A DNA stretch of 63,882 nt, counting the filler, from Reticulomyxa filosa (lineage: Eukaryota > Protista > Foraminifera): NCBI GenBank assembly GCA_000512085.1. It is 18 parts of 18 records of this genome, joined end to end, with 100 filler letters (N's around TTAATTAATTAA, not from the genome) between each part and the next. Parts side by side here need not be neighbours in the genome. Positions count along the whole stretch, not along the records: positions 31,980 to 48,415 come from ASPP01027127.1; 17 more parts are not named here. The stretch is one strand, 5' to 3'. Under the pieces are notes generated by a model. The model had not been told where the DNA came from. It did not search any database and was given only the letters and a program-made list of their open reading frames with translations. Below, piece by piece: positions 6,985 through 48,415 of this stretch. A program made the translations under genes and the position numbers. Within the stretch, counting starts at the first letter, position 1. Every line of letters starts with the position of its first letter.

Positions 6985-9260
6985 NNNNNNNNNNNNNNNN
7001 NNNNNNNNNNNNNNNNNNNNNNNNNNNNTTAATTAATTAANNNNNNNNNNNNNNNNNNNNNNNNNNNNNNNNNNNNNNNNNNNNTTTTTTTTAAAGTGGA
7101 CGGTCTGTTGCAAAAACAAAACCACTTTTTCTTTAAGTTGAAAAATTGTAAATAAAAAATAAAAAAGACATACCAGTTGGACCGGTGATATCACCCTAAC
7201 TACGAGCTGGTACGTTGGACAACAAAAAAAAAAAAAAAAGCCTTTTTTTCGTTAAGACGTAAATGCACAACACATAAATGTTTATAAAAAAGATGTAAAT
7301 TTGCAATTTTTTGGAATATTTTGACATTTTTGACAAAAAACTTGAAAAAAAGAATGGTTAAAATTTTTGTATAGTATTTCATTTGTGGTTCTGCAATTGT
7401 AATTCCAAAAAATGGATCAATTACAGATAATTGAAATTAAAATTTTTTTTTGGAATGAATCATTATTTTTCCTTGAATAATATTTTTTCTGGGAGAGAAC
7501 AAGTTTTCCCTTTTTAGAAAAAGTTCTCTTGGACATTACGAATGTGGTTTTTGCTATTCTCTTCAAACAACCTAACAATCCAAACGTAGATAACATAGAG
7601 AGCTCTTTCACCAATGCATTCCTCTGCAAATTGTAACAGTTGCCGAAAAAGAAAGAGGACAACCAGCGCAAATTCAACATACCCAAAACAACACTATTGA
7701 AAAAAGGTGCTGTCATCACGGCCCAAACAAATACGCTTGCATGTTGTGATCTCTCCTGACATTGACAACATGCAGGTTGGTGTTGCATATCTATCTTCAC
7801 AGTCAAACGAGGATATCAATTTTTTTGTTTGTTCCGAAAGTCATACACATGAAATTACTCATAAATAAATAAAAAATCAGATATTCGATTATGTGCCCCT
7901 TTTCACAGCAAAAAATAAATCTTGCAATACTACCTTTTGTTCATCGATCGAAATTGATGGTATGTAATAATCAGTGCCAGAATTACAAAAAATTACCACA
8001 ACAGTGGGCCAATTGTTGCAATGAAGTTTCTCAATATTACTTTACGCTTTAGCCTTTTTTTTTTGTGGGCACTTCTTTACGTAAAACTTTTTGTTATTGC
8101 ATTCAATATGTTTAACATTACCATGTTTTAATGTATTTTTTATCACTTTATTGTGACCAAACCCATTTCAAAACATTTCAAATGTAATGTTTAATACTTT
8201 GACTATCTAGAACACTCACTGTCTTGTAAATAGGATTCTGAAAAACAAAGTATAAAAAAGTTAGCAATGGTTCAATTTGGGTGAAGTTGAAAAGTTCCTC
8301 TTTTTTGGAATTATCATCATTGGGAAAAATGTCTGATACCGAAAACGAAAAAACAGAGGAAAAACCACAGGTAAATACATACACAATGAACTAGATGATA
8401 TTTGGCATGTAAATCTTCAGCAGCACCTAAAAAAAAAAGCGACTTATTACCATTGCAACAAAAATATTTAAAAGAATATCATCAAATGCAACCAATGGAA
8501 ACACTACAAGAGGAACTTTAAGTCGTTTTTATCGGATAAAGTAAAGATTTTTTCGTTTAATTTTGATAAGAGTGAAACTGTTGTTTTTAAATAGCTTTTT
8601 ATTTGATTTTTCTCAAGCTTTTTTTGTTAGATTTGGCTACTCTCGGAAATGAAAAAGAGGCCAAAATGGTCATTTGTTTCTATATGTTTGTCGGTAGTGC
8701 TGCTCTCCGCATCGACTTGCTCTCTTTTTTTAGTTCCCTCCAAAGTGGTCATAGACCACGCCGAATGTGGTCGATGGCATACATTGTCGGTATACGTGAT
8801 TCTATATGGATACGTATCTTTTGGATAAGGGATCAGAGCTGTAAAAAAAACAAGATGTGTTGACAGGCTATTGTATACGTTGTTTCTCCCTTAGCGACTA
8901 CTTTTTCATCATCTACGCAAAAAAAAATATTTGTCAATCCGATCCTCACCCCTGGAATGTCAGAAATTATAATTTTGTCTAAATATTTTTGTTGCAATGG
9001 TTGTTGTATTGGATTTACACTGATCATTTTCTTTTTCGCCAACTGTTGCACTTTGCAAAGGAGAGCATTGGCAAATGAATTCTTAAGGGCGAATTCCATT
9101 GTAGAAGTTTGCTTTATTAGGTTGTTTGAAGAGAAGAGCCAAAACCACAGTTGTAATGTCNNNNNNNNNNNNNNNNNNNNNNNNNNNNNNNNNNNNNNNN
9201 NNNNTTAATTAATTAANNNNNNNNNNNNNNNNNNNNNNNNNNNNNNNNNNNNNNNNNNNN

Positions 9261-31979: not shown

Positions 31980-34900
31980 CAATCTTTTGATAATCGAGTA
32001 TCTCCTTGATTTCCGCAAAGACAAAAACAATATGGCGATCATAATAAATCCAATCAATATTATTTCGGCAAAGTTATTTTCGTTTGTAATGTACAAGTTT
32101 TTTGCATTTCTTTCATCCTTTGATACATACTCTGGTAATTCCTGATTTTCAAATACTTGGTACCATTCCCTACTTTCTGAAAATCGATTGCCTAGCAAGT
32201 ATAATCCATTCTTCAATTCGGTGTTGACATTAAGCGACAACAGTAGTGCTGTTTTTTTTGGTTCATTCCATCAATGTCTTTTTTTTTTTTTTTTTTTTTT
32301 TGTAAAATAACGTGCAAGACACGTATATACAAATACCTGACTCGTCTCCAATGGTCGTAATCTGGCTTATATTTTTGATATTAGTTGTTTGAATCAAATT
32401 GCTTGGCATTGCACCAGACAAACGATTTTGTATTAGCGTAACAAATTCAATACTCCCTTGAGTGTCCCTCCATGGCAATACTCCATCAATTGCACATTCA
32501 TGCGCAAGAAACATTTGCACACTGGTGTTGTACAAGCTGCTTGGAAGATGCCCTTTCAGATGTGGATTGTTATAAATGGATAATATCTTCAATGCTGGTG
32601 CTTTCTGAAATAAATCGTCCAACCTTAGATTATTTTGTGTTTTAATTTGAATGTAAAGGTGCACTTGTAAAACAAATGAAACAACATTTTCTTTTTTTTT
32701 TTTTTTTGAGGAATACATATATACCAATCATGCAAATTATGATCTGAAAATTGATTCATATGCAGTGTCAAGACCGATGTAAAATTCATTCGATTAGGTA
32801 GTTTCGGCAAATTTCCACTAAACATATTCTTTTCCAAAGAAAGCATAAGCAACTGATCCCAATTGTAAGAATTGCCAAATGGAATAGTTCCACTTAGCAT
32901 ATTGTCGTTGAGTCCGACAACTACCAAGCCTGTTAATGCATCCAATTGCGGCAACTCACCACTCAATCTATTTTAACATAAAAATCTGTTTAAAAAATTA
33001 GTTGTTTTTTTTTTTCGACAAATCAAATCGAATTGTGTTTCTTTTTGATAACTTATTGTAACCCAACATCAAATACTGCAAATAATCCATGTTTTCAATT
33101 CCTTTTGGTATTGTACCACTCAATTCATTTTGCTCCATAATTAAGAACCACAAGTCCAAATTTCCAATTTCTGATGGTATAGTCCCACTCAATTGATTTC
33201 GAGACAATTCCAAAATGGTCAAATCCGATATATTTCCAATTCCCTCTGGTATTGTACCAGTCAATTCATTTTGATTGAGAAATAAAAATATCAGGTTGAC
33301 TAAATTTACAAGCTCTTTTGGTATTGTACCAGAGAGCCTACAAACAAAAAGAGCATACACATATTCAAATTACCTAAAGAATTTTGGAGTGGGAAAAAAA
33401 AAAGCTTACCGATTTCGATTCAAATCCAAACATAGAAGTTGGTTCATATTTTCAATTTTTGGTGGAATGGTACCATTTAGTCTTTTTTATTTTGTATTAA
33501 TAAAAAAATAAACAATTGTTTTTTTTCAAGTATTTATTTTGTATTTTTAACTTATTCTGGCCAAAATGTAAATACATTAAATTTGTCAAATTTGTAATTT
33601 CCAGTGGTATTGTACCTGTCAACCTAGTCAATTTCATTTAAAAAAATACACTTATTTTGTAATTTGCTATTTTTAAACAAACACAATGACATGTCAAACT
33701 TAACGTATTATTACTCAGATCTAATGTTAGCAATGCCCTTAAATTTCCAATTTCTTTGGGTACGGAGCCAGACAATCTATTTAGATTGTTTAAACAACCA
33801 TCAACAACTTATTGATTTGAAAATAGTTTATCTGTGTTGTTTTCCGTGTAAAACCGAACTGATTATTGTACAACTCAAGATTTTGCAATCTAGTCAAATG
33901 ACCAATCTCCGGAGGGATCGTGCCACTTAGTCTATAATACCCACAAATTACACAAATATACATTTTGTCAAAAAAAAGACAATATTTTCCAATAAAAGCA
34001 TATATAAATATATACATACATATACACTTCTCAACCTCATTGAATTCATATTCAACAATTGTAAATTGATCAAATTTCCAATCTCTGCTGGTATTGTACC
34101 ATTTAATCTTTTGTTTTTTTTAAATAAAGGAAATTTTTTTTTATATACCCTCAAATCCAAAACACATTTTTTTTTTTACATAACTTATTCATATCCAAAA
34201 CAATAAGTGTTAAATTGCTTACATTTCCAATTTCTGGTGGTAGTGTACCAATCAAATCATTTTGCTCGAGGAGCAAGCAGTTCAATCCAACAATATTTCC
34301 AAGTTCTTTTGGTATTGTACCAGAGAACCTACACACACACATACACAAAAAGAGCAAAATATTCAAGTATCCAAAGAATTGGAGAAATAAAAAAAAACTT
34401 ACTGATTTCGACCCAAATCAAAAAATAGGAGATTGCTCAAATTTCCGATTTCTGGTGGAATTGTGCCGCTCACGTTACTAACATCAACAAAAATATTTGT
34501 ATAACTAAAAAGATATATCATATGCACGTGCGTAACACATATATATATTTATATCTCAACTTTGAATACATTTGCAAAGATTGTAAACTGGTCAATTTTC
34601 CAATCTCTCTTGGTATTGTCCCTGTCAATCTATTTATGAAAAAAAGAAACCCTTTTCTTTTTTTTTTTGTCTCCTCTCTACCTTAAAAAAAATAAAAAGG
34701 AACTGATTGTAATCCAATGCCAACGATCTCAGTTTTGAAAGTTGACTATTATTTTGAAAAAAACAAAACAAAACAAAAAAACAGCCTTTTTTTTTTTTGA
34801 ATACATTTTTTTCCCAAAGTTACCAAATTTCGGGAGGAATGGACCCTTCCAAAAAATTTTCTGCCAAAATTAATTGTTGCAAATTGGTAAGATTTACTAC

Positions 34901-35234
34901 ACATGCAGGTATTGTTCCAAACAGGGATTGATTGTTTAGGAAAATATCAGTGACGGTGGATTGTCCATCTTTAGAATCACAAACCACTCCTTCAAATGAA
35001 CATCCGTCATTTGAGGAAATGTTCCAGTTCAATCCATACATTGCATCATAAAAGCACAGTAATGCGTTCATCTCAGATTCAGGTAAACTCGATGTCTGGC
35101 TCACTTTGTGGTTTTATTTCAGTTGTTTACGAACAAGAACCAAGAAATAATGTAAGTTTGTGGAGGAAACTGCAGAAATGGGCCCACCAAATACAAATAG
35201 TGGCCAGCCAAAAAAAATTCAAGAACCAGGTCAT
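31980..35234 (-). CDS. Plant-type LRR receptor-like membrane protein (signal peptide, LRRNT cap, about 20 LRRs, TM helix); C-terminus truncated
   Basis: Repeats of LxGTIPxEIGNLxxLxxLxLxxN, a cap ALLCFY..W..GCSFEGVVC, and TM FAEIILIGFIMIAILFLSL followed by RKSRR. About 15 exons with GT-AG boundaries, read by hand. The first exon is inferred. Confidence 0.9.
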
Positions 35235-35408
35235 GTTTTATTCGGAATTTAATGTAGTTCTTCTGCGTACAGCTCCTTTTTGTCGTTCACTGTTACGTTG
35301 ACAACATAATTTTGAAACTTTGACAAAACGATAACAACAAATTGAATTAAGCGTTGCATATTGAATTGAAATATTTCTTTTCATTTTCTTTGTTTGCCTT
35401 TTCAGACC

Positions 35409-36136
35409 CAAAAGTTTCAGTATGAGTATCCATGCACTATGGAAGAAGACAGAAGAATTTTTACAGTTGTTAAGATGCTCACAAATATGTCCGAGTTTTT
35501 CAGTCTCCAAAATCAATCCATACAAAATGTTATACGATCATGCAGTGTACAAAATTTGGCCTACTTTTTTGAAGCTAGTCAGTGTAGAAAAAAAAAGAGA
35601 GTATTTTGTTTTTGTTGTTGTGTTCCTTGATCATAAACAATTACCATGAAGTAAATTGCCTATAAAGAGTTATACCTCCAATGTAATCAAGATTGATGAA
35701 AGTTTTGAAAAATACTCAGTGTTGTGTCGCCAAAATAAATAAAATAAACAATGTTTTTTCGTTAATCAAAGAAAATTTCAGTGTCAAAAACAGGTCGATT
35801 TTTTTGTGAGGACCCTAAAGCAAAAAAGAAGTTCTCGTTTCATTTGCTTTCAGAAACAAAAGGAGAGAAATTTGTTCATCTTTGCTAGTTAATACATTTT
35901 CTTTTTGTATAGAAGAAAACATGTTTGGAATGAAATATTACTGGGTGTTAACAACTTGATGAACACCCAGGATACAACATCCCAAAAAATAAAGGTTAAT
36001 ACCATGAAGAAAATGCTTTTTTTATCATTTTTCTTCAAAGTGCTGACCTAAATCAAAATAGTATAAAGTGATTGTATTTTCTCGTTATTAAAAAATGTGT
36101 TTTTTTATAGTTGCGAATTCGCGAAGCGGTTAAAGA
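35409..36136 (+). repeat. Dispersed repeat copy 1 (degenerate C2H2 zinc-finger gene remnant)
   Basis: Shares collinear blocks with 50464-50798: CAGTATGA.TATCCATGCA, GATGAAAGTTTTGAAAAATA..CAGTGTT, TTTTTGTGAGGACCC and GTTGCGAATTC.CGA.GCGGTTAAAGA. Confidence 0.8.
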
Positions 36137-36352
36137 GTTGCAAAACTGCGATCATAATTAAATTGAGAATTTTTTTCTTTGATTTGTAATTGATTTTTTA
36201 GATTGTGATACTTTATCAAATTTAATATTATTTTTTGCTTTTTAATAAACAAAAAGTTCAATCAAAAACAACAATAAAAAGCACATCATCTTGGATATTA
36301 CACGGTTCAATTTGAAATAACTAAACTATCTTTTAATTGAACGAGTGATATT

Positions 36353-37056
36353 ATGGATATAATCAAATATCATTTTCAGGGATTAAAACAAACGAATTCA
36401 GACTGTTCTCATGATACAGCAGTCTCAAAAAAAAGCAAGGCAAAAAGTCGCGTGGACGTGTTCTTCTGTCGTCTGGTCGTGGAGAACGAAAATAACAGCG
36501 ATTCTTCCGAAGGCTTAGTGTTCTACCTGTTCCAGGGCAGACAGAACGCAAGAAAAATGTGGTCGGTGGGCCCACCGCAAGTCGCCAATGCCAAATCTAA
36601 TAATATTGACGACAAATCTAACGTCGTCATCTCTATCGGCGAAATCGCAATGCAAAAGTTTGTGATGGATTGTCAACTGATCGAAACAGGTATGTACATG
36701 CATACACATATATGTTATTATTTCATTTAATCAATCAGTTCAAATTTTTTATTTTTTTTTATTTTTTTAAAAAAAGAAAAGCTATTGATAACCTGTCATG
36801 TTGGCAGCTTCGACGAATTCAATACATTGGTGACAAAAATACGAATCGTGGTGCTGTTTTATCAAGTGTTCGACAGACTATTCCAAGTGGACACAAAGAA
36901 AGTCTAAACTCTTTTCAGCATTGGAAAATGCTGAAAAATAAATTGGACATGCTAATGGAAACTAGAGTAAATACAAGAAGCAAGGTTATGGGTACTATTT
37001 TTTTAAAGAAGTCTTCGCTAATAAGTCTAATTTATCGGAGAAAGTATAATAGATGA
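36353..37056 (+). pseudogene. Hypothetical gene fragment (2 exons, no obvious continuation)
   Basis: Protein-like ORFs 36353-36730 and 36670-37056 are separated by an intron-like AT tract. No family recognised. Confidence 0.35.
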
Positions 37057-40000
37057 AATTTAGGTAAAAAAATATTGATTTGTGACAAAGTTAGACTACA
37101 ATTAGTATTTTTACAACAAATTTACTACGATAACGAAGACTTATGTATAATGATTTTATCATGACTATTGAAAATTCTAAGAGCTACAAATCGATTTGAC
37201 CAGCACATTTGCTACTTTTTACAAAGTACATTAAAAAAACTTGTTATTCATAGAATTATTTAGTATGTCAAAACTCAAGTGACATAACAACTAATTTCAA
37301 ACTTTAAAAATAAAAAATGGTTTGCATTAAGAAAAAGTTACCAATAATGAACATGGTAGAACGATACATTGCTAAGCGTTTACAAGTGATGTAGATAATA
37401 TCAGTAAGCATATCATTTAGCTATTCAGCATACAGTGACTGCATTAATTTCATCTGCAATCAGTTCATATAACTTGCAGTTGAAAAAGCAAACTAGTTCT
37501 CACTTGATTGTTCCATCAACTCATTTCGCTTATACGTTCGATATCATAACAACTACATGTCAAATCCAATTCGCAGTTCAAGTGATTTCAAATACAGTAT
37601 CTATGTCTAGCATTAGTTTAATTTTTTAGTATTTTCGCCGTTGCTCAATTAGTGCATATTCGCTATCATTTGGGTCATCATGTCATCTACTTATCCACAT
37701 TCAATTGTCATTATCAATATTATTGTCATTGTTTCTTTGGTTTAAGTGACAGTGTATCAGAATTTAGTTTGACCGCAATTGTATTAGGCCTTGTAGATTA
37801 ATATCATTTTTTTCTTCTTTTTTGATATTATGTACTTACAACTAGAATAAATGCTTTAATTATTCGTAATTTTCTATTTATTACAGTACGTAAATATGAT
37901 ATAGAATAAAGTTTGCGTAAGCGACCAGCGTAAATGTATTACGTTCAACTTATCAGCAGATTGCGGGGATACAACAGTAATGATATTTGTAATAAGAGCG
38001 ACAATTACTTGTTCAAGTGTTTGCGAGTCAAGTGTGTTCTTTGAACACTTTCTTTTGCAATATTTAGACTATTTTTTGTCTTCTGATATTAAAAAAAATT
38101 TGGTGCTAAATATACTTTTCATATTGAAAAGATAATGAAAAGTACATGTCAAAACATATGAAAAATGACTAATAATATAAAACATAAAAAAAGAAAATAA
38201 AATTAAAGTTTCCAAACTAAGTCAGAACGTTATATCAAACATTTACTAATGTTGAAATTCAGTTGAAATAACTTTGTTTTGTGACAGATTTAGACTGAGA
38301 TAAGTGTTTTTGCAATAAAATTCATAATACAACGAAACTTTTCGTGAAATGACTTTAATAAATGACTATTGAATTTTGTAACTTTTTTGTTTGTTTCTGA
38401 AACGAAGTAGTCCATCAAATTGGCAATTGCTCCGGATATATCATTGTCAGAAAATTTTTTGTTTATGATTGAACATATATTGTGCAATTTTATTAAGATT
38501 TTCTCGAATTATCTTTTTCTGATTGATTGTACATTTGATAATATCATATTCAATCTTTCTTCATATGTATATATAAATTGTCTCAGACATTGCCTTGACG
38601 CCGGTACGAACATTTTGTAGTCATTGTACTTTATTTTTGTCGGCGCAATATGCAGCTTGCCGCCAATTAGTTGTAGCTTTATCGTCGAACTAGTCAAAAA
38701 ATATACCAATATCGACTTCTTGCACACATGCAACTGAGCAATAGTATCAGATTTTTGTCATTAATTTGCTATGCTGCTTCTTCTGCTATTTTTACTAATT
38801 CCAACATTAGCTTAATGTCAAAGTGCTTTCTATCTTGTTTACTGGTGAGGCTTGAACTGAAGCTGTTACAACACCATAGTAGCTATCTTTTTCATCATCT
38901 CCCTTATGCATTGATCATTGAGTGCTTATTGCTTCTGCAAACTTTGGCGTTGACTTTTGTGCTGCATATTTCTCGCATTTTTATCTCTTTTTGTGCTATA
39001 TGGTGATTAGAAAAAATCATGTCATTTGATTTCTCATTTGGTCTGCTCATTTGTGCAAATGTGTCGTTCGCCTTCACTATCATCGTCAATATCTCCGAAA
39101 CTAGGACTAGCCGCTTTGAATTGAAGCCGCCACATATCGCAGTCATTGTCGTTATAGTGACTTGCTCAAACATGTTTAAACTTTTCACCACTTTGAATCT
39201 TATTTTTTTGGCTTTCGTCTTTCAAGTTTTTTTCCAATTTTTTGTTCCATATCAATACGGAAATTCGGATCATTTGTATCTTTTGGACAAAATGTTATTT
39301 TCTTGCCTTCTTTTTTGATTCACAAAAATATCTTTTTTTTGTCCAGTTGTTTAATATTTTATTGTTTCTGTTCAATTGTTTTTTACAAAAAAAAGAGTTG
39401 TTAGATACAAATACCATTTTTAATGTATACAATGCGGCTTTTATCCTTAATAAGGTCATTCCAAAGATCAAATAAGTCTTCATCATTATCAATATGGTCG
39501 TTAATGTGTCTTTCCTTATCAAAAGAAACCTGGACGTTATCGTCAAATGAAAGGCTTCCTTGATTATATTCAACAATCCTTCACAGCTTCTCTCTTTCGC
39601 ACTTTCGGGCATTCTTCCGTCATTACGTAGGTCAGTTGCCTTAAATGTTGCTTTTTCATTCCGATAGGATTTAACTACAAAGCACTTGGCCTTTGTGATT
39701 TTGTATATGTTTTTTCTGAACTACTTATTTTTAACTGATGTGCAATAAAAAATAATTCAGAAACCATTTTTTGAAAGCTGGTCAGTAATAACGACTGGCA
39801 AAAATAATTCAACGGTCACAAAGCCAACACCCTAAGAAAACGAAACAGTGAAGTAAAGTTGACGATTTTTTTTTGTATGAAAGCTTCGTGTTGTGCCACA
39901 CCTGTATTTTCCTTAAAGTAGAATTTCAGAAAAATTTTTTTTGATTAAAACCTTTTTCCGCAAAAAACTACAAGACAAAAAAAAACTCAGCAGTTGATTA

Positions 40001-40403
40001 GCTTCTTTTGTCCGATCAGGCACACCTGTAAAAATGATTTGTCCATTTTCCTTTTTAAACTGAGCAAAAGGTTACCAGAAACAAATAAATAAAAATATGA
40101 TAAATCGGCAATTTTAAGACAAACGTTAAAATTATCTTCTGTGAAACTTACAAAAAACTTGTCAAAGACAATTTCATGTTGGATTAATAGTTTCACACTT
40201 AATGCTTTTAATTTCAAATTACCAAAGCGAGCAACGAAAGGAAAGCAGTATGACAATATTTTAAGTTTAAGGCATAAACAGCAAATGAAAATCCCTCAAT
40301 CAAGAAGAACAAGGCCAGCCTACAGGTCAACAAAGCAACAAAGCTAATGATTTTTTTATTGTGAGCTTTTATTTTGTTTACGTTGAGCCCTATTTTGGCC
40401 GGC

Positions 40404-43400
40404 ATGTCAGTTTCAAAAGTGCTTGCAATCTATACCCCTGATGGCGGCAAACCGATCAAAAAAAGGTTGAGAAGAGTAGTTCAAAGTTACTCCCAAAAAG
40501 ATTTAGATGATGTGTATGACAGCGTCAGAAGTAAATTCTCAGAATGTTTTTCCAATTCGAATTTTGTAATTGAAATTAAAGGCGAAACAATATTGCCCAG
40601 AGATACACAAAAGTTTGGAGATTCAGTGAAAGGACTAAAAGAACTGGAGATTGTGATTAAAGTTAACTAAGTTTTTTTTTTGCATCAATATTTTTTTCTC
40701 ACTTAAAAAAATCACAAAAAAAAAATAAACAGAAAATGGAGATACAAAAAAAAACAACTCCAAAATTGTAGTGAAGAATACTGTAACCAAACGAGAAATA
40801 GAACAAACAATAATCGACGAAAAAGAGGGTGAGGCAGATATCGATTGGGAAAAAGTGTATAATGACTTGTTAAAAAATATTAACGACGAATTTAAAGTAT
40901 TGAAATTCTTATTACAAAATAAAGACGAAATTCATGTGGAAGGAGCCGATGATTTAAAACAAGAGTGGGAAGAAATGAATGACAGCGGAGACAGCACTTT
41001 GAAATTATTTCTTTCATATGAGGTAATTACCCTTTTTATTTAAAAAAGGAAATAAAAATATCTATATATATATAGTGCATACATGACATAAAGGAAACGA
41101 AAGAAAAAAAATTTAATGTAACAAATGGTATTTCATTGCTATTTGAATTCACTCCAAAGCGTGTAAATGACTCAAATGAAGCAGTGATGAAAGATACGTG
41201 GAAAAAAAATTGGAATGGATTACGAGGCCGAGTGTTTGAACATTTGCAATTGCAAAACAATGAAAAACTTTTTCTGTTATCGAGAATGGATGAAAGAGAT
41301 GACATAATCGAAGATGCTGACGAATTAAGTGATTACTTTAACGAATTATTGAATGATGATAATTCAGAAGCCTTTCAACTTATTGTTGTTCGTCCGTTTT
41401 TTTAAATTTGAGGAGAAAACAAACAAACAAACAAAAAAGGTTCATGCATGTGGAAAATAGATTTGTTTTATATTTGAATACAATGGACATTATGTGAGCT
41501 GGATCCCCTCTGATTCACCACTGTCCACAGAAATTGAAATATATGATTGGCGTAACGCATTTAAAGAGATGAAACAATTTGTATCGAAACAATTCCAACT
41601 CGAAACTGAAGATTTAACATTTCAAAATGCACAAGATGAAAGCGACATAATCGATAATGAACGAGATATAAAATATATCTGGGAAGAAATGTTGAACCAA
41701 GATTGTTTGGGTATATTTCGAATTGTTATCAAAAACTTGGATTCGGACTCTGATTCAGATTCGAGTTTGAATGAGTCAATAAAAAAGTCGAATGCAAAAG
41801 TGAAAAAAAAGAAAAGTTTGGAAGAAGAAATGAAATATGAGAACAAAGGAAATAACAATGAACAGAGGTGTGAAGCGAGTAAAAAACCAAGTGTTGGAAT
41901 CACAGAAAAAATAACAAAAGTGCAGCAATCTCAAAACTCAGAGTCAGTGCAAAATGTGGACAGCAACAAAACAGTGAAGTCGTCAATACAAATCATGACC
42001 GATATTGGAAATAAATTGTCACAATTGAATACCAATAACAAAGAAAATTGCAAGGGTTTTATGAACATAGTGGTTGACACATTATTACATATCAAACCTG
42101 ACGAAGATCGTGATATACTATACTCAACTTGGGGATTCATTCTCAAAGAGTTGGAAAATAATACCGACGGAAAAGAGAGTATTGAGGTGGTGAGAGAATT
42201 TTTGGGTTTACTGGACTTTACATTAACTAAAAATGCAAAAGATTATTTGATCACAGGACAGCCAAATATAGATATAATCAAATTTGTCAAACAAAATTTC
42301 GACGTTTTAGAAGGTGGTGTAATTATTGAAGACAATGGAAATTCACTAGAGCAGTGTCTGCATGGATTAGAAATTGAAATTCCAAAAAATGACAACGAAG
42401 TAAAACATCATAAAAATGGCATTTACGATAAGCATCATATTATATTCACTTTGCAAGAAATCAAACTCGAAGATCAAGATCTGGCATTAGTAAATAAATG
42501 CATATTGCAACCCGAATATATGAGTCGATTTATCAATTATTTTGTTTTCAATTCGTGTAGAGACGACGCTAAAATTATTGATTTTCATCGATTGGAAAAC
42601 ATTCAAATAATTCCAATCAGTTTTTTTGGTAGTGAAATTGAAGTTGTGGAGTTGCTAATGAGATTTGGGATTTTATCAACAGCATTGAAAACCAAAATGT
42701 TGGCAGAGAAAAATTGTTTGCCACCGGGTATTCACGCGTTGCTACCATTGGAACAACTCGTCTCGTTGCCTTCTATCTATGTTGTACTCTTTTATTGGCC
42801 TGTAAAAAATGCCTTTGCCAAAGACAATATCAAACGCTCGAATATTTCATGTTTATTTTCAAGAGTACTTCAAGAGGTATCCACCACATTATGCATTCCT
42901 ATCACCAAACAAGATCTGACTGACTTTGGAACTGTTGAAGAAATTAAACAAGAGCCAGTGAGAAGTGGAGTCATTTTTGATTTTCGAATTAAAGAAGATA
43001 AGGCCAATTCAGTTTCTATTTCCAATCAACTAATCGATAATATTAATCTGAAAATGGTGAAATCTTCTATTTATTCCAATTTGAACGCAGAGTCGTTAGA
43101 TAAACACCCAGAAAATCTATTTGTGCTGGGAGGAACAGATACATTTGGGTATTCTCTTTCATTCAAGTGTGGAAGTCGAACTGAAATGTGTCAACATAAC
43201 ACAAACTTCCAAAGCAAGAAAGAACTATACACCTTTCTTCAACAAACAAGCTCTTCTTATTGCATCTCATATCAACAAAATTTATGTTTTGAAGGTAAGA
43301 TTGAACTTGCCTCTGCTTTGAATGAAGATATTGTCAGAGTTTACAAGGATTCTCAACATACCATTCAGCTTCAGTATGAAGAGGATGAAAAAAATATTAC

Positions 43401-46400
43401 AACTAAAGCAGATGACCAACTAGCACAAAATCAAGAGCTCGTGAAAAAGACATTTTTTCTTATTTATTTGGATAAGCTAGAGTCTGTGTTTGTATATATG
43501 TGTTTGAGACATTACATATAAAGTGTTTTAAATTATATGAGTATATTTTGTAGCAAAGAGAACAAAAAACAAAACAAGCCCTTTTATTTGCTGTTTTAGT
43601 TACAACCACAAAGAATTTTCTCATAAAGAAGTCCAGAAAATAGCTTTATTGCTTCGTGAAAGTTTTGGTTTTTTGTTCTTTTTATCTGTTTTGAAAATTT
43701 ATTGAATTGCAAATGGCAATTGAAAAGGCATCCCTTGTTTTTTAATTTGCTTCATTGGATAGACGTCAAAGATTTGACAACTGATCAGCATTGTTCAATT
43801 GATATCGCCTTGCAAAATAAACAGGAAATTTCAGATGTCAACGTTGGATACGCAGAAAAGTCTGCATATTATCTGAAGAATTTACCAGCTGATATGGAAC
43901 GCATACTTAAAAATTACCAAAGTAAAAAAAAAGAAAAAGCAGGAAAAGAAGGGGGAAACTGGATTATTGCCGGGATCAAACAGATATTAAGCGGCTCAGA
44001 TAAAAAAGTCCTCTCGACATAAATAGTAAGATCGATACGCATGACAGAACGAATCAAAATAGCACAGAAAAAAATGATGAAAAAACAACTGATGACGTAA
44101 AAACAATTAACAACACAGAAACAACTAATGATATTGTCGCAGTTCCGATCGAGGTGCTTGAAGAAATAGATTGGACTCTTGAGTTGGGGCTATTACAGAG
44201 GTGGTACGCAAAATACCAACATTATTATAACGAGTATTCTAAAAATAAAAAGATCTGCTTGGATCGATATAAAATTATAGAAAACATTCAAAAAGACGTG
44301 AAACAAAAATTCGACAAAGATAAAGGGCATGCAAAAAAAGAATTTGAGAAGAATTTTTCAAAGTTTTTGGATGAAAAAAAGGGTTCCTCAACGTTGAAAA
44401 TGAAAATATCAGGGATAACTGTGGAGGAAAAAGCTAATTATGAAACCTTCAAGTTGGCGTATTACTTAGAGACGGAATTGCCACCCTCCAATGAATTAAA
44501 ATTCGTATCATTTGCGCAAACAAACGAGAATGTAGACAGTCGGTTTTATGAGAACATGGCGTATGAAATTCAACAGGATCAACATCTTCTTTGTCATGCA
44601 TTACTCAAAAATAAGGAGATGATGCTGATTATACGTACTACATTTCATGATAGCCAATGTTCTACCAAAGTTATAATGAGCAAACAAAAGATTCTTTCAA
44701 GTAACACAAAGCCAGTGACAAAATTTGGTAAAACAGTGGATTTTGTTGCATTCAATGGTAGAGATGAAACTCTGGCAGTTTATGCAGAAGACAGTATAGC
44801 TTTTTTCTGCTTTCAAAACAATTACGCCACGTTGAGACAACAACAGAGCCCAAGAATTAATTTGACACAATTTTCATGGTACGAAAAGACCAAAGTTCAA
44901 AATATTTTGTTTGAGGACAATACAAAGCAACTATTAGTCATTGATAAGAACAACTGGGTTCGATTTTTCGATTTACTCAACAATGGAATTGTAATGCGGG
45001 GAAAAGAGTTCCAAATCACAGATAAAAACAAAGAGCATATTGACATCCAGCATTTTTTGCTAACTCCGGAAGGAGGTTATTTGTTGGCATTTTCTCAAGA
45101 AATGGAAGAAGTACAGGCAGAACAAATAGCAAATATTTTAATACCTCAAGGTGAAACACTAGTTGATGGGGAGGAGGACACCAAAGAAATTGAAGCCACA
45201 ACTGCGACCAGTGAAGAGCCAGGAGAACAGAAACAAGAATCAATACAAACAGAGATTGATAAAAAAGTGAAAGGAGAAAAAAGAAAACCAACTGGAAAAA
45301 TTGTAATGGATTGTTGGCTATTGGCAAAGAAAGAAAAGATTGTAAGCCTAATTCTTCCCGATTCGATGACTATTGATACAATTGATATGAAGCAAATCCA
45401 AATCAAACAAAACAAAGACAAAAAAAGCTTTTTAGTTGGGACCAACAAGTTTCTTCAATTATGCATGCTTGAATTGGTGATTGAAGTTGCGCAAGCTCAT
45501 TTACATTCTTCCGTGCAAAAAATGGATAAGCAAGATCAAGAGCATTGCATTCGAAAAGAAACCAAACTGGATTATTTGGAATATCATTTTGAAAAATTTG
45601 GAAGTCGACCAGAATTCCATGATTTGGGACAAGATGGAAAACTGACATTTCATACCACGTTATTCATGGATGAGGCTCAATGCAAAACAACGGAAGAAAA
45701 AAAAAAATTGGAGTGCTTGTGCTCTCAAATTCCAAGCAATGTTACAAACATCATTCAATCTTCGTCTAAAAAAGATTTCACTTATTTAAATTGGGAATGT
45801 TCATTGGCCTGGATGTCCAAATCAAAAGAATTACTATTGTCTCATGTCATCGATGAAGTCACCGATAAAATTCCTCACATTAAATTAAGCGATTTTGTGA
45901 AATTGTTGATTATACAAGTACCTATACAAATTGCAAGAGGCTCCAATAATTCCTTTATGTTAATGTATAATGGAGAAGATAACCAACGAGAGTATATCAA
46001 TACCCGAAGTGTATTTCAATTGAGAAAGGAAATTCGATTTGGAGCATATGATGCATTAATCAATTCATGGGAAAAAGACATTAAAGTGGTTACATCAATG
46101 GGGAAACAATCCACTGGAAAATCTTACAAGTTCTTTTTTTTTTAAGTTACAAACGCAATATCATCAATTTTTGATTTGAATGTATTTTTCATAGATTGAA
46201 TCATCTGTTTGGAACCAAGTTTGATATTAGTGGCGGTCGTTGCACTGACGGAACATGGCTGTCAGTCCGAATTGTGAAAGATATTTTGTACGTGTTATTG
46301 GACTTTGAAGGTCTGGGATCGTTTGAAAGAACTCAACAAGAGGATGTCTTACTCAGTGTATTCAATGCAGCCATGTCCAATTGCACCATTTTTAAATGTG

Positions 46401-48379
46401 AAAATCGATTTGATCAAGACGTAGGAGGAATGTTCCAGAAATTTCAAAAAGGAGTGGATTTTATTAAAGGATCAGAAAAATGTTTTCAAGGGAGATTATT
46501 GTTGGTCATTAAAGATATTATTAAATCTGGAGAACAACAAGCTATTGAAGATTTTGTGAGACATATCAGGGATCTTTGTCATGAAAGTAAAGTCCAAACT
46601 GATGGTGAGACAATGGAATCGAATTCATTTTTGACAAAAATGTACAAAGGTTCATTGCGAATTGAAGCATATCCACCTCTCGCGAATGAAGGATTTTTCC
46701 GAAAGTTAGCTTTGTTTCGCAAAGATGTAGACGACATACCCGCAATGCATCGTGGTGGTCAGCAATTTTTGTCCCATATGAAGTTGATTATGAGCAAATT
46801 AAGCGTACAAGATTGGGGATCGCTCTCTGGTGAAATGGCAAAAATGCGAGTCGATGAATTAAAAGACTACATCGATGCGGCTATCAAAGCAGGAACATGC
46901 ACAATTTCAGAAAGTCAAGAGGGTGGAGCCATATTTCGAGTAGCTGAAGATAATCACTTGATAATATTGGATGGATCGAAACCAGTTTTGATTGAAAATG
47001 AAGTTGCCTTGAAGAAGGCAATTGAAAAAGCAGCCGAAAGAAATGCAGATATAATTCAAATACTCGAAAAGGAAAAATTGGAAGAAAAACTGCTAGCAGC
47101 ACTGGGCAATGTAAATGATGGAGGATTGATATTAGGATCTATTCCCTCACAAAAGTATTTATGGGAGAAATTTGAGTCAATGGTAATGAAAAGAGATCAC
47201 GACAACTTTGGAGTGGGTGTGTTTGTCTTTCAGTTATGGCTGGACACGATTCACGTGAGAAGAGAAATGCGAGTATTGCAATGGATTGAAGGCAACACAT
47301 GCAATTTTAAATCGAAAGATGAACAGGATGTAATTAATAGTTTCTTGCGAGAGTGCCAAGTGAAATTGCGACAATTGAGAGAGCCAATGGTTATTTGCAA
47401 ACAAAAATGTAAGCAATGCAATTACCCATGTTTATTGCATAAAGGGCATGAAGAAGATAAAAAATATCTCCAGCACGATTGTTGGAATGAAAATAATAGC
47501 CATCAATGTGTTTACCTTTGCTACTATTGTCAAAATGATAAAAAAGACGAAGCAAAAGATGCTATTCCTTGTGGATATCCTTGCGGACATGAAGGAAAGC
47601 ACGATTGTCAAGTTCGCAACCATTGTTGTGGCCAACCATGCAGCTTAGCTCATTTGGATCATTGTCAACAACATTGTGCTTTGGAATCGGGACATGATTC
47701 ATCTATAGATCACATGTGCGTAGCAAAGATACACTATTGCAGTCAACCATGTTCATTACCAGGCTGCAAAATGAAATGTGTGGAGGATCATATCGTTTCA
47801 CATGACAGACACTGGTGTGGTGAAAAGCGCTGTCCTCATAAATGTCAGGTCCAATGTCGAACGAAAACAGATACAATCGAGCTCTGTGGAGCTCAATGTC
47901 ATTCCGAAGATCATTTCCATCATCTCAAAATTGAAAGCGATGAAATCGGTGATGAGGGACATACATGTCATTCAGATCATTTGTGTCCGGAAAAGTGTCA
48001 CGAGCAGGGTATTTGTGAAATCATCACTGAACGGAAATTTGAAGCACGTGATTATGAAGGACAGAGAGGCACCTTCAAATACGACGCCGTGGTTGAAGTC
48101 AATGCCAAACGAAAGTACTGTGTGGTCCCAATTCCGAAATTTCACTTTCGACATTCAATAAATACAAAAGATCACATTTGCTACACTCAGCATGTATGTG
48201 ATTACAATTGCAATTGCAAACATGTTGCAAGGGATCTTAGTCATATTTGCGATGATACATGTGGATGTACTCACATTGGCAAAAAACACAGTTGCGATGT
48301 GAAATGTCCATCATGCGGATATTTTTGTGATAGACCATATGGACATACTGAAGTTAATTTTTTTAAAAAACTACACACA

Positions 48380-48415
<36 letters not shown>
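40404..48415 (+). CDS. Giant (>2,300 aa) GB1/RHD3-type (GBP/VLIG-related) P-loop GTPase with N-terminal PB1-like repeats, a beta-propeller-like region and Cys/His-rich repeats; 3' truncated
   Basis: G1 MGKQSTGKS (intron 46130-46194 joins SYK|LNHLFGTKF), G2 GRCTDGTW, G3 LLDFEGLGSFER and G4-like VIKD, followed by many CxxxC..GH..HxC repeats at 47395-48350. One apparent -1 shift at A6 44002-44007. Confidence 0.88.

Follow-up and report, generated by a model that had tools for sequence, protein, structure and literature searches.

A leucine-rich repeat gene of the foraminiferan Reticulomyxa filosa with one-repeat exons, and the predicted channel/scramblase-fold membrane domain of its paralogs

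A leucine-rich repeat (LRR) gene in which single repeats occupy single exons raises two questions, namely whether such exons still behave as cassettes that are skipped or exchanged, and what kind of protein the repeat arm belongs to. Both are posed by a locus of Reticulomyxa filosa lying in a stretch of DNA of 63,882 nucleotides (the window), in which at least 17 contigs are strung together, each junction being the same spacer (44 N, a 12-nt AT motif and 44 N); adjacency across a spacer is thus no sign of linkage. The initial annotation of this locus described an LRR receptor built from interchangeable 72-nt phase-2 exons, any of which could be skipped, duplicated or swapped in frame, and suggested that a recognition receptor could be diversified in this way in a rhizarian.

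Gene model and exon layout of RFI_30935

The gene, RFI_30935, is encoded by the minus strand, at one end of a contig of 16,436 nt (31980-48415; ASPP01027127.1), and was identified by a search with its exon 14; the database annotation comprises 350 aa only. Splicing was inferred from DNA alone, and the resulting model has 15 exons joined into a reading frame open over 706 aa; its 14 introns are all intact GT-AG introns of 67-104 nt, the first being of 67 nt. A version with an alternative first exon (donor at 35134, minus strand) has a frame of 718 aa and is less plausible, as it would give a 100-nt exon followed by an unlikely 31-nt intron. The frame is cut by the contig end 11 codons past a transmembrane helix (TM0), and the protein starts with a hydrophobic N-terminus and a plant-type LRR cap, continues through 18 regular repeats and a second cap, and reaches TM0, which basic residues follow. 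The product had been described as an LRR receptor in a rhizarian, and it is indeed a predicted surface LRR protein, with a signal-peptide-like N-terminus, LRRNT_2 cap, LRRs and TM0.

All exons are given here on the minus strand. Exon 1 (35171..35234) encodes the predicted signal peptide, the hydrophobic N-terminus being judged by eye; exon 2 (34824..35103) holds the plant-type N-terminal cap (Pfam LRRNT_2, 23.6 bits vs a cut-off of 20.7), repeat 1 and the start of repeat 2, the remainder of which occupies exon 3 (34704..34745, 42 nt) and ends at the N-x|L site. Repeat 3 is found in exon 4 (34561..34629, 69 nt), whose donor lies one codon early, repeat 4 in exon 5 (34403..34477, 75 nt), and repeats 5 and 6 together in exon 6 (34185..34328, 144 nt). 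Five exons of 72 nt with one repeat each follow: exon 7 (34036..34107, repeat 7, with Met at the conserved Asn), exon 8 (33860..33931, repeat 8), exon 9 (33705..33776, repeat 9), exon 10 (33552..33623, repeat 10) and exon 11 (33410..33481, repeat 11). Exon 12 (33053..33337, 285 nt) carries repeats 12-15, of 24+24+23+24 aa, without internal introns, and exon 13 (32725..32967, 243 nt) repeats 16-18. Finally, degenerate LRRs and a family-specific cap are encoded by exon 14 (32337..32623), and the juxtamembrane cap and first membrane helix by exon 15 (31980..32248), which is cut by the contig end; TM0 itself spans 32013-32072 and is followed by basic residues, the remainder of the membrane domain falling outside the window.

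The nine exons that had been listed initially (69, 75, 144, five times 72, and 285 nt) were all recovered at their coordinates and lengths on the minus strand, each between AG and GT and jointly in one open frame. The list was correct in every exon that it named but too short, since LRRs are also encoded in 34704-34745, 34824-35103 and 32725-32967. The statement that all introns are of phase 2 applies to introns 2-13 but not to introns 1 and 14, which are of phase 1 in the 15-exon model. Likewise, the proposed common junction is found in ten introns (3-12), at N-x|L-x-G or one codon before it, but not in intron 2, which is of phase 2 and lies mid-repeat. Nine of the ten repeat-junction introns split the x codon of that motif, and the remaining one splits the preceding N codon, which accounts for the pair of 69- and 75-nt exons. 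As each repeat offers 72 possible positions, nine introns sharing one of them cannot be put down to chance. Moreover, the contrast drawn between a conserved scaffold and a variable surface is borne out among the 14 repeats of 24 aa, with 1-3 residue types in the scaffold columns and 7-11 in the concave x columns.

Two observations concern the splice sites themselves. The 69+75 pair (34403-34629, minus strand) resembles a compensated slide of 3 nt, donor and acceptor each lying one codon early, and no second AG is present at the usual acceptor position. Further, eight of the ten junction introns (introns 3-12; 33053-34703, minus strand) start with GTT, mimicking a coding continuation x-Leu or x-Phe, and the retained-intron text in paralog predictions opens in the same way.

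The one-LRR-per-exon phase-2 layout has already been published for brown-algal ROCO genes, as two papers state (PMC3341825, PMC11378527), the initial annotation having named these genes for their one-LRR-per-exon layout. The likeness to type I ROCO LRR exons extends to 72-nt phase-2 exons of one repeat, plant-type 24-aa LRRs and a variable concave face. Nevertheless, the brown-algal exon is described as running GxxP...NxLx, with its border between N-x-L-x and G (PMC3341825, in the part consulted), whereas the border in RFI_30935 is N-x|L-x-G and that of ROCO falls two codons later, which suggests an independent origin. As hallmarks of the Ectocarpus genes, the same sources report LRR exons that lie spare or inverted within introns, arrays that have recombined between recent paralogs (PMC3341825), and splice variants (PMC11378527). 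In RFI_30935 neither such spare exons nor the ROC-COR domain are seen, and among its paralogs repeat order is kept where it can be read.

Plant LRR receptor-like kinases (GSO1, FLS2, ERECTA-like, SERK), which are also the best PDB sequence matches of the LRR part, share with RFI_30935 the signal peptide, the LRRNT_2 cap, LxGxIP repeats and a membrane helix. Unlike them, the paralogs carry a multi-pass domain in place of a kinase, RFI_30935 being cut after TM0. Conserved exon borders and an LRR-exon-skipping variant have been described for SERK genes in the available text of PMC3061892; the intron position within the repeat of ERECTA or SERK genes was not found in the accessible parts of PMC5296948 and PMC3061892. 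The exon layout is a further and probably independent case of a published pattern, and of less consequence than the fusion treated below.

Growth and present state of the repeat array

A single pair of introns, 5 (34329..34402) and 11 (33338..33409), both on the minus strand, exhibits clear homology among the 91 intron pairs (z 4.4, reached by 0/300 shuffles); the runner-up has a z of 2.3, and pairs 4~7 and 6~12 a z of about 2. The repeats that flank the homologous introns are among the most similar of the array (4~11, 74%; 5~12, 72%; range 44-75%), so that the unit duplicated or converted was a block comprising one exon, an intron and a portion of the following exon. The best-dated duplication is a block that crosses exon borders. 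The simplest history would start from an ancestral repeat with a phase-2 intron, the array growing by tandem duplication of repeat-plus-intron units and of multi-repeat blocks, with some introns lost later to yield the exons of 144 and 285 nt; the exon layout probably records this growth. A derivation of the introns from decayed LRR repeats was considered and rejected, as none of the 14 beat its shuffles (best, 18 of 100).

Whether the cassettes are also shuffled at present is a different matter. Skipping is possible by construction, as had been claimed: every listed exon is symmetric (phase 2-2), and its omission keeps the frame. If cassettes were actively skipped in the mRNA or swapped between genes, a combinatorial receptor repertoire would result, as proposed for brown-algal ROCO genes. 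Apart from exon symmetry, this reading can draw on at least 20 related R. filosa entries that could exchange cassettes, on two paralogs (RFI_05076, seemingly without repeat 10, and one labelled CLAVATA1, without one repeat), and on a within-slot concave identity of 44% while the membrane domain is 72-84% identical. LRR-exon skipping in Medicago SERK3 (PMC3061892) and splice variants of Ectocarpus ROCOs (PMC11378527) provide precedents, as far as the text of these sources extends.

The DNA around the array speaks against it. All 16 matches below E 0.01 of a repeat DNA profile (nhmmer) in the window are coding exons of RFI_30935, none being a spare or inverted cassette, and introns of 67-104 nt are too short to hold one. 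Short introns favour intron definition, under which exon skipping is rare, and this also weighs against skipping here. Of the earlier claim that cassettes can be duplicated and swapped, duplication is documented by introns 5 and 11, but ongoing swapping finds no counterpart in spare cassettes and is opposed by the retention of slots among paralogs.

That retention was examined in paralog sequences predicted by automatic gene calling, in which introns are retained. For repeats 15-18 the match is to the same slot in every case, and for repeats 12-14 in most. Concave identity amounts to 133/305 within slots vs 115/1225 across slots, a difference reached by 0/2000 permutations; the test covered 27 repeats of seven proteins in slots 11-15, mostly repeats 12-15, which share one exon, with the 23-aa repeat 14 of the window left out and two paralogs slotted with one repeat missing. 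For the cassette repeats 7-11, only three paralog predictions allow the order to be read, and the scores lie close together (50 vs 46; a 57-57 tie): RFI_28087 runs 7-8-9-10, the CLAVATA1-labelled paralog 10-11 (out-of-frame pieces, narrow margins), and RFI_05076 has 8-9 followed by a repeat resembling 4 or 11, repeat 10 being absent through what may be a cassette loss or a skip in the gene model. RFI_05076 also seems to lack repeat 15, which was disregarded because an error of the gene model is the likely cause. The comparison of cassette number and order among paralogs, proposed initially as a check, has thus yielded possible repeat losses, but order is kept wherever it can be read. Moreover, one of the two missing repeats sits within an intronless exon and hence does not represent a cassette event.

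The relatives also bear on the matter. At locus L001, a distant relative, a single frame runs without interruption through 20 repeat motifs, and an intron-like gap of 67 nt lies upstream, at another position; as this array is intronless, cassettes are not a family-wide trait. In a distant family member (L002, 906-972), the LRR array is broken by what is probably a 67-nt GC-AG intron containing branch-point-like motifs.

The check on selection that had been suggested for exposed residues did not separate them from neutrality, the concave dN/dS being about 1. Among 91 non-independent repeat pairs within RFI_30935, near saturation, concave pN was 0.64 and pS 0.59, compared with 0.16/0.64 in the scaffold; in recent repeat pairs the concave values were 0.36/0.41. 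These figures fit relaxed and diversifying selection equally.

Taken together, the shuffling idea is weakly supported for the RFI_30935 cassettes, and an active exchange or skipping is unlikely; skipping is allowed by construction, and the readable evidence favours an array that would now be largely fixed. With such an array, paralogs would differ mostly by substitutions on the concave face, perhaps with the occasional gain or loss of a repeat.

The membrane domain of the paralogs

A feature absent from the initial annotation is that the paralogs of RFI_30935 end in an 11-helix domain with the predicted fold of TMEM63, OSCA, TMC and TMEM16 proteins. Besides RFI_30935, the R. filosa family has 20 entries, some of them fragments, and no kinase family was detected in 11 R. 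filosa proteins scanned, despite two CLAVATA1-like names. Over the final 266 aa ahead of the contig end, RFI_30935 has 51-71% identity with seven paralogs, all of which run on into the membrane domain, and 14 of 15 paralogs with a juxtamembrane NLY anchor extend 160 or more residues beyond it. Judged from these paralogs, RFI_30935 very probably shares their membrane-domain C-terminus, which itself would lie outside the window.

The C-terminal half of RFI_28087, used as a query, returned ten proteins, all from R. filosa. A profile of the membrane part retrieved 275 homologs at E 0.001 or better among 1.84 billion proteins (150 of the 275 being listed), other foraminifera included; nine of 30 entries bear a species name (R. 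filosa, 2; Bolivina argentea, 5; Nonionella stella, 2). At least two plant-type LRR motifs are present in 56 of the 61 proteins with more than 150 aa upstream of the membrane domain, paralogs included. In a tree of 81 of the 120 aligned rows, a second clade of differing amino-acid composition is found.

The structural evidence comes from the membrane domain of paralog RFI_13770, modelled from 120 sequences (pLDDT 85, pTM 0.85); a first model from ten sequences (pLDDT 41) was unusable and its fold search found nothing. The model has 11 long helices, numbered TM0-TM10 by order. With Foldseek, all 47 rows shown are TMEM16, TMEM63, OSCA or TMC proteins at a probability of 0.97-1.00, with no E below 0.001 (best, 1.3e-3). 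A VIA-align comparison with human TMEM63A gave a Z of 22.0 and an rmsd of 5.6 over 408 aligned residues, TM0 included, and in an independent wide structure search the top 13 of 48,161 chains belong to the TMEM63/OSCA/TMC/TMEM16 superfamily (Z 20.6 to 9.7; the next, 8.0). The matches to the superfamily have an rmsd of 5-6 A at about 10% identity. As a lead only, Atlas returns anoctamins at 0.89 for the membrane domain; its structure search, with a poor Atlas model, gave a TM of at most 0.33.

The sequence signal is weak but in agreement, rice OSCA1.2 being the best of six PDB matches (E 0.02). A 3-sequence profile retrieved no PDB sequences, and profiles including the LRRs return LRR proteins only. 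In 35 homologs the membrane domain received no Pfam family name; RSN1_7TM and RSN1_TM match one of 59 members each (E 1.4e-4 and 0.009), at E values similar to those with which unrelated families match single members, and the TMC domain also matches one of 59 (E 0.009). On the paralog model, therefore, the membrane domain belongs by its predicted fold, with a ten-helix core, to the Transmembrane Channel/Scramblase (Anoctamin) superfamily; by sequence, it appears not to be assignable to any Pfam family, and it does not fall clearly into OSCA/TMEM63, TMC or TMEM16 as individual families.

Among superfamily members, those of the OSCA/TMEM63 group are the best structural match and share the extra first helix: model residues 8-520 correspond to 37-719 of TMEM63A, the alignments starting at model residue 8-18 and chain residue 2-46. 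The N-terminus of OSCA/TMEM63 is outside the cell, which fits an LRR ectodomain. OSCA proteins have a large cytosolic domain between TM2 and TM3, whereas the corresponding loop of the model has about 22 residues (helices 121-147 and 170-197); identity is about 10%, and the R. filosa family differs further in its LRR ectodomain of 300-800 residues. The ten-helix core is shared with TMC and TMEM16 (TMC-1, Z 19.4; TMEM16F, Z 16-18), from which TM0 and the LRR ectodomain set the family apart.

In the TM5-TM6 loop, near-invariant columns hold four cysteines and two tryptophans; charged residues of TM5-TM7 are likewise near-invariant. Near-invariant cysteines in that loop also characterize TMC, so that the four cysteines are common to both. 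Polar or charged residues within predicted TM5-TM8 are conserved among 120 divergent sequences (R266, 91%; K359, 91%; E405, 88%; E396, 70%). As to a TMEM16-type calcium site, the alignment has conserved columns at D394, E396, E405 and N428 and no acidic pair in TM8.

Elsewhere in the window, the last 15 codons of the family occur alone in another, 2-kb contig (8474-8521, plus strand), 87% identical to the C-terminus of RFI_28087, no other part of the gene being detected in that contig. About 20 nt just before this stray copy recur inverted near 8980-9001.

Proposed coupling of the repeat arm to the membrane domain

An LRR array combined with a domain of this predicted fold makes a receptor coupled directly to a channel or scramblase likely. 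RFI_30935 is probably such a receptor, joined to an ion channel or lipid scramblase, with an array now largely fixed in order. The LRR arm would stand outside the cell, seated on TM0, and the ten-helix core would pass ions or lipids, as characterised superfamily members are reported to do in the available text of PMC11534332. A shared fold by itself shows no function; it nevertheless makes conduction of ions or lipids by the modelled domain fairly probable. Ligand binding, or tension on a tethered LRR arm, would then open the core through TM0, and such gating by binding or pulling is put forward as a possibility, with some reserve.

The same architecture would also suit a receptor for adhesion or recognition whose membrane domain is a non-conducting scaffold and which signals through partners. 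An identity of about 10% to known channels, the lack of an assigned Pfam family in most members, the missing large domain between TM2 and TM3 and a canonical calcium site that is not evident are all in keeping with a scaffold, but the conserved polar and charged residues of TM5-TM8 are those expected of a permeation path, and the accessible part of PMC11534332 has characterised superfamily members passing ions or lipids; this reading is therefore rather improbable. A further reading, that RFI_30935 ends soon after TM0, either as an LRR protein with a single pass or as a pseudogene in decay, is very unlikely. In its favour, the contig ends 11 codons past that helix, the Asn is lost in repeat 7, many entries of the family are fragmentary, and its last 15 codons occur as a stray copy in another contig. 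Against it, neither a stop nor a frameshift interrupts the 706 codons, all 14 GT-AG introns are intact, the scaffold dN/dS among repeats is about 0.12, and the paralog match holds up to the last base.

Beyond the receptor-plus-channel reading of RFI_30935, a wider proposal can be made tentatively: foraminifera and other protists might possess an expanded and so far undescribed class of surface receptors that join a diversified LRR ectodomain of plant type, via TM0, to a pore of TMEM63/OSCA/TMC fold, recognition of prey, microbes, matrix or self directly opening a channel or scramblase, with the R. filosa cassettes letting the arm gain, lose or skip repeats.

To our knowledge, LRR surface receptors signal via a kinase, a TIR domain, a GPCR or a partner, and TMEM63, OSCA, TMC and TMEM16 proteins are gated by force, osmolarity or calcium; we know of none with a built-in recognition domain. 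A natural fusion of LRRs with the channel fold would be a new branch of the superfamily, would allow tethered or ligand gating of this fold to be tested in a single chain, and would provide a first candidate for contact sensing by foraminiferan pseudopod networks.

No paper describing an LRR fused to the TMEM63/OSCA/TMC/TMEM16 fold was found in the literature searched, as far as its text was available, most subscription papers lying outside its scope. The main text of a superfamily survey (PMC5868767), in the form accessible, treats seven families and no LRR fusion, the sole "LRR" standing in a reference title and "leucine" not occurring; an OSCA phylogeny (PMC12806904) mentions neither LRR nor Rhizaria in its available portion; and a survey of eukaryote LRR proteins (PMC2939053) counted, according to the part at hand, single-pass receptors only. 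In the databases the genes go by hypothetical or CLAVATA1-like kinase names, and the family is hence hidden there. It is likely to be an undescribed receptor-plus-channel family.

Two further regions of the window carry long open reading frames (ORFs). On the contig of RFI_30935, 6 kb upstream and divergent, such frames occupy 41461-48415 (plus strand), the last of them with a weak match, below cut-off (E 0.002), to a URGCP-like GTPase of the very large inducible type, followed by a Cys/His-rich region. Finally, the contig at 52381-61173 has a GC content of 40% vs 33% and long intronless ORFs, encoding an ankyrin and DUF294 nucleotidyltransferase protein (1092 aa) and two proteins with HEAT repeats (1255 and 373 aa); a symbiont or a transfer of DNA may be its source.
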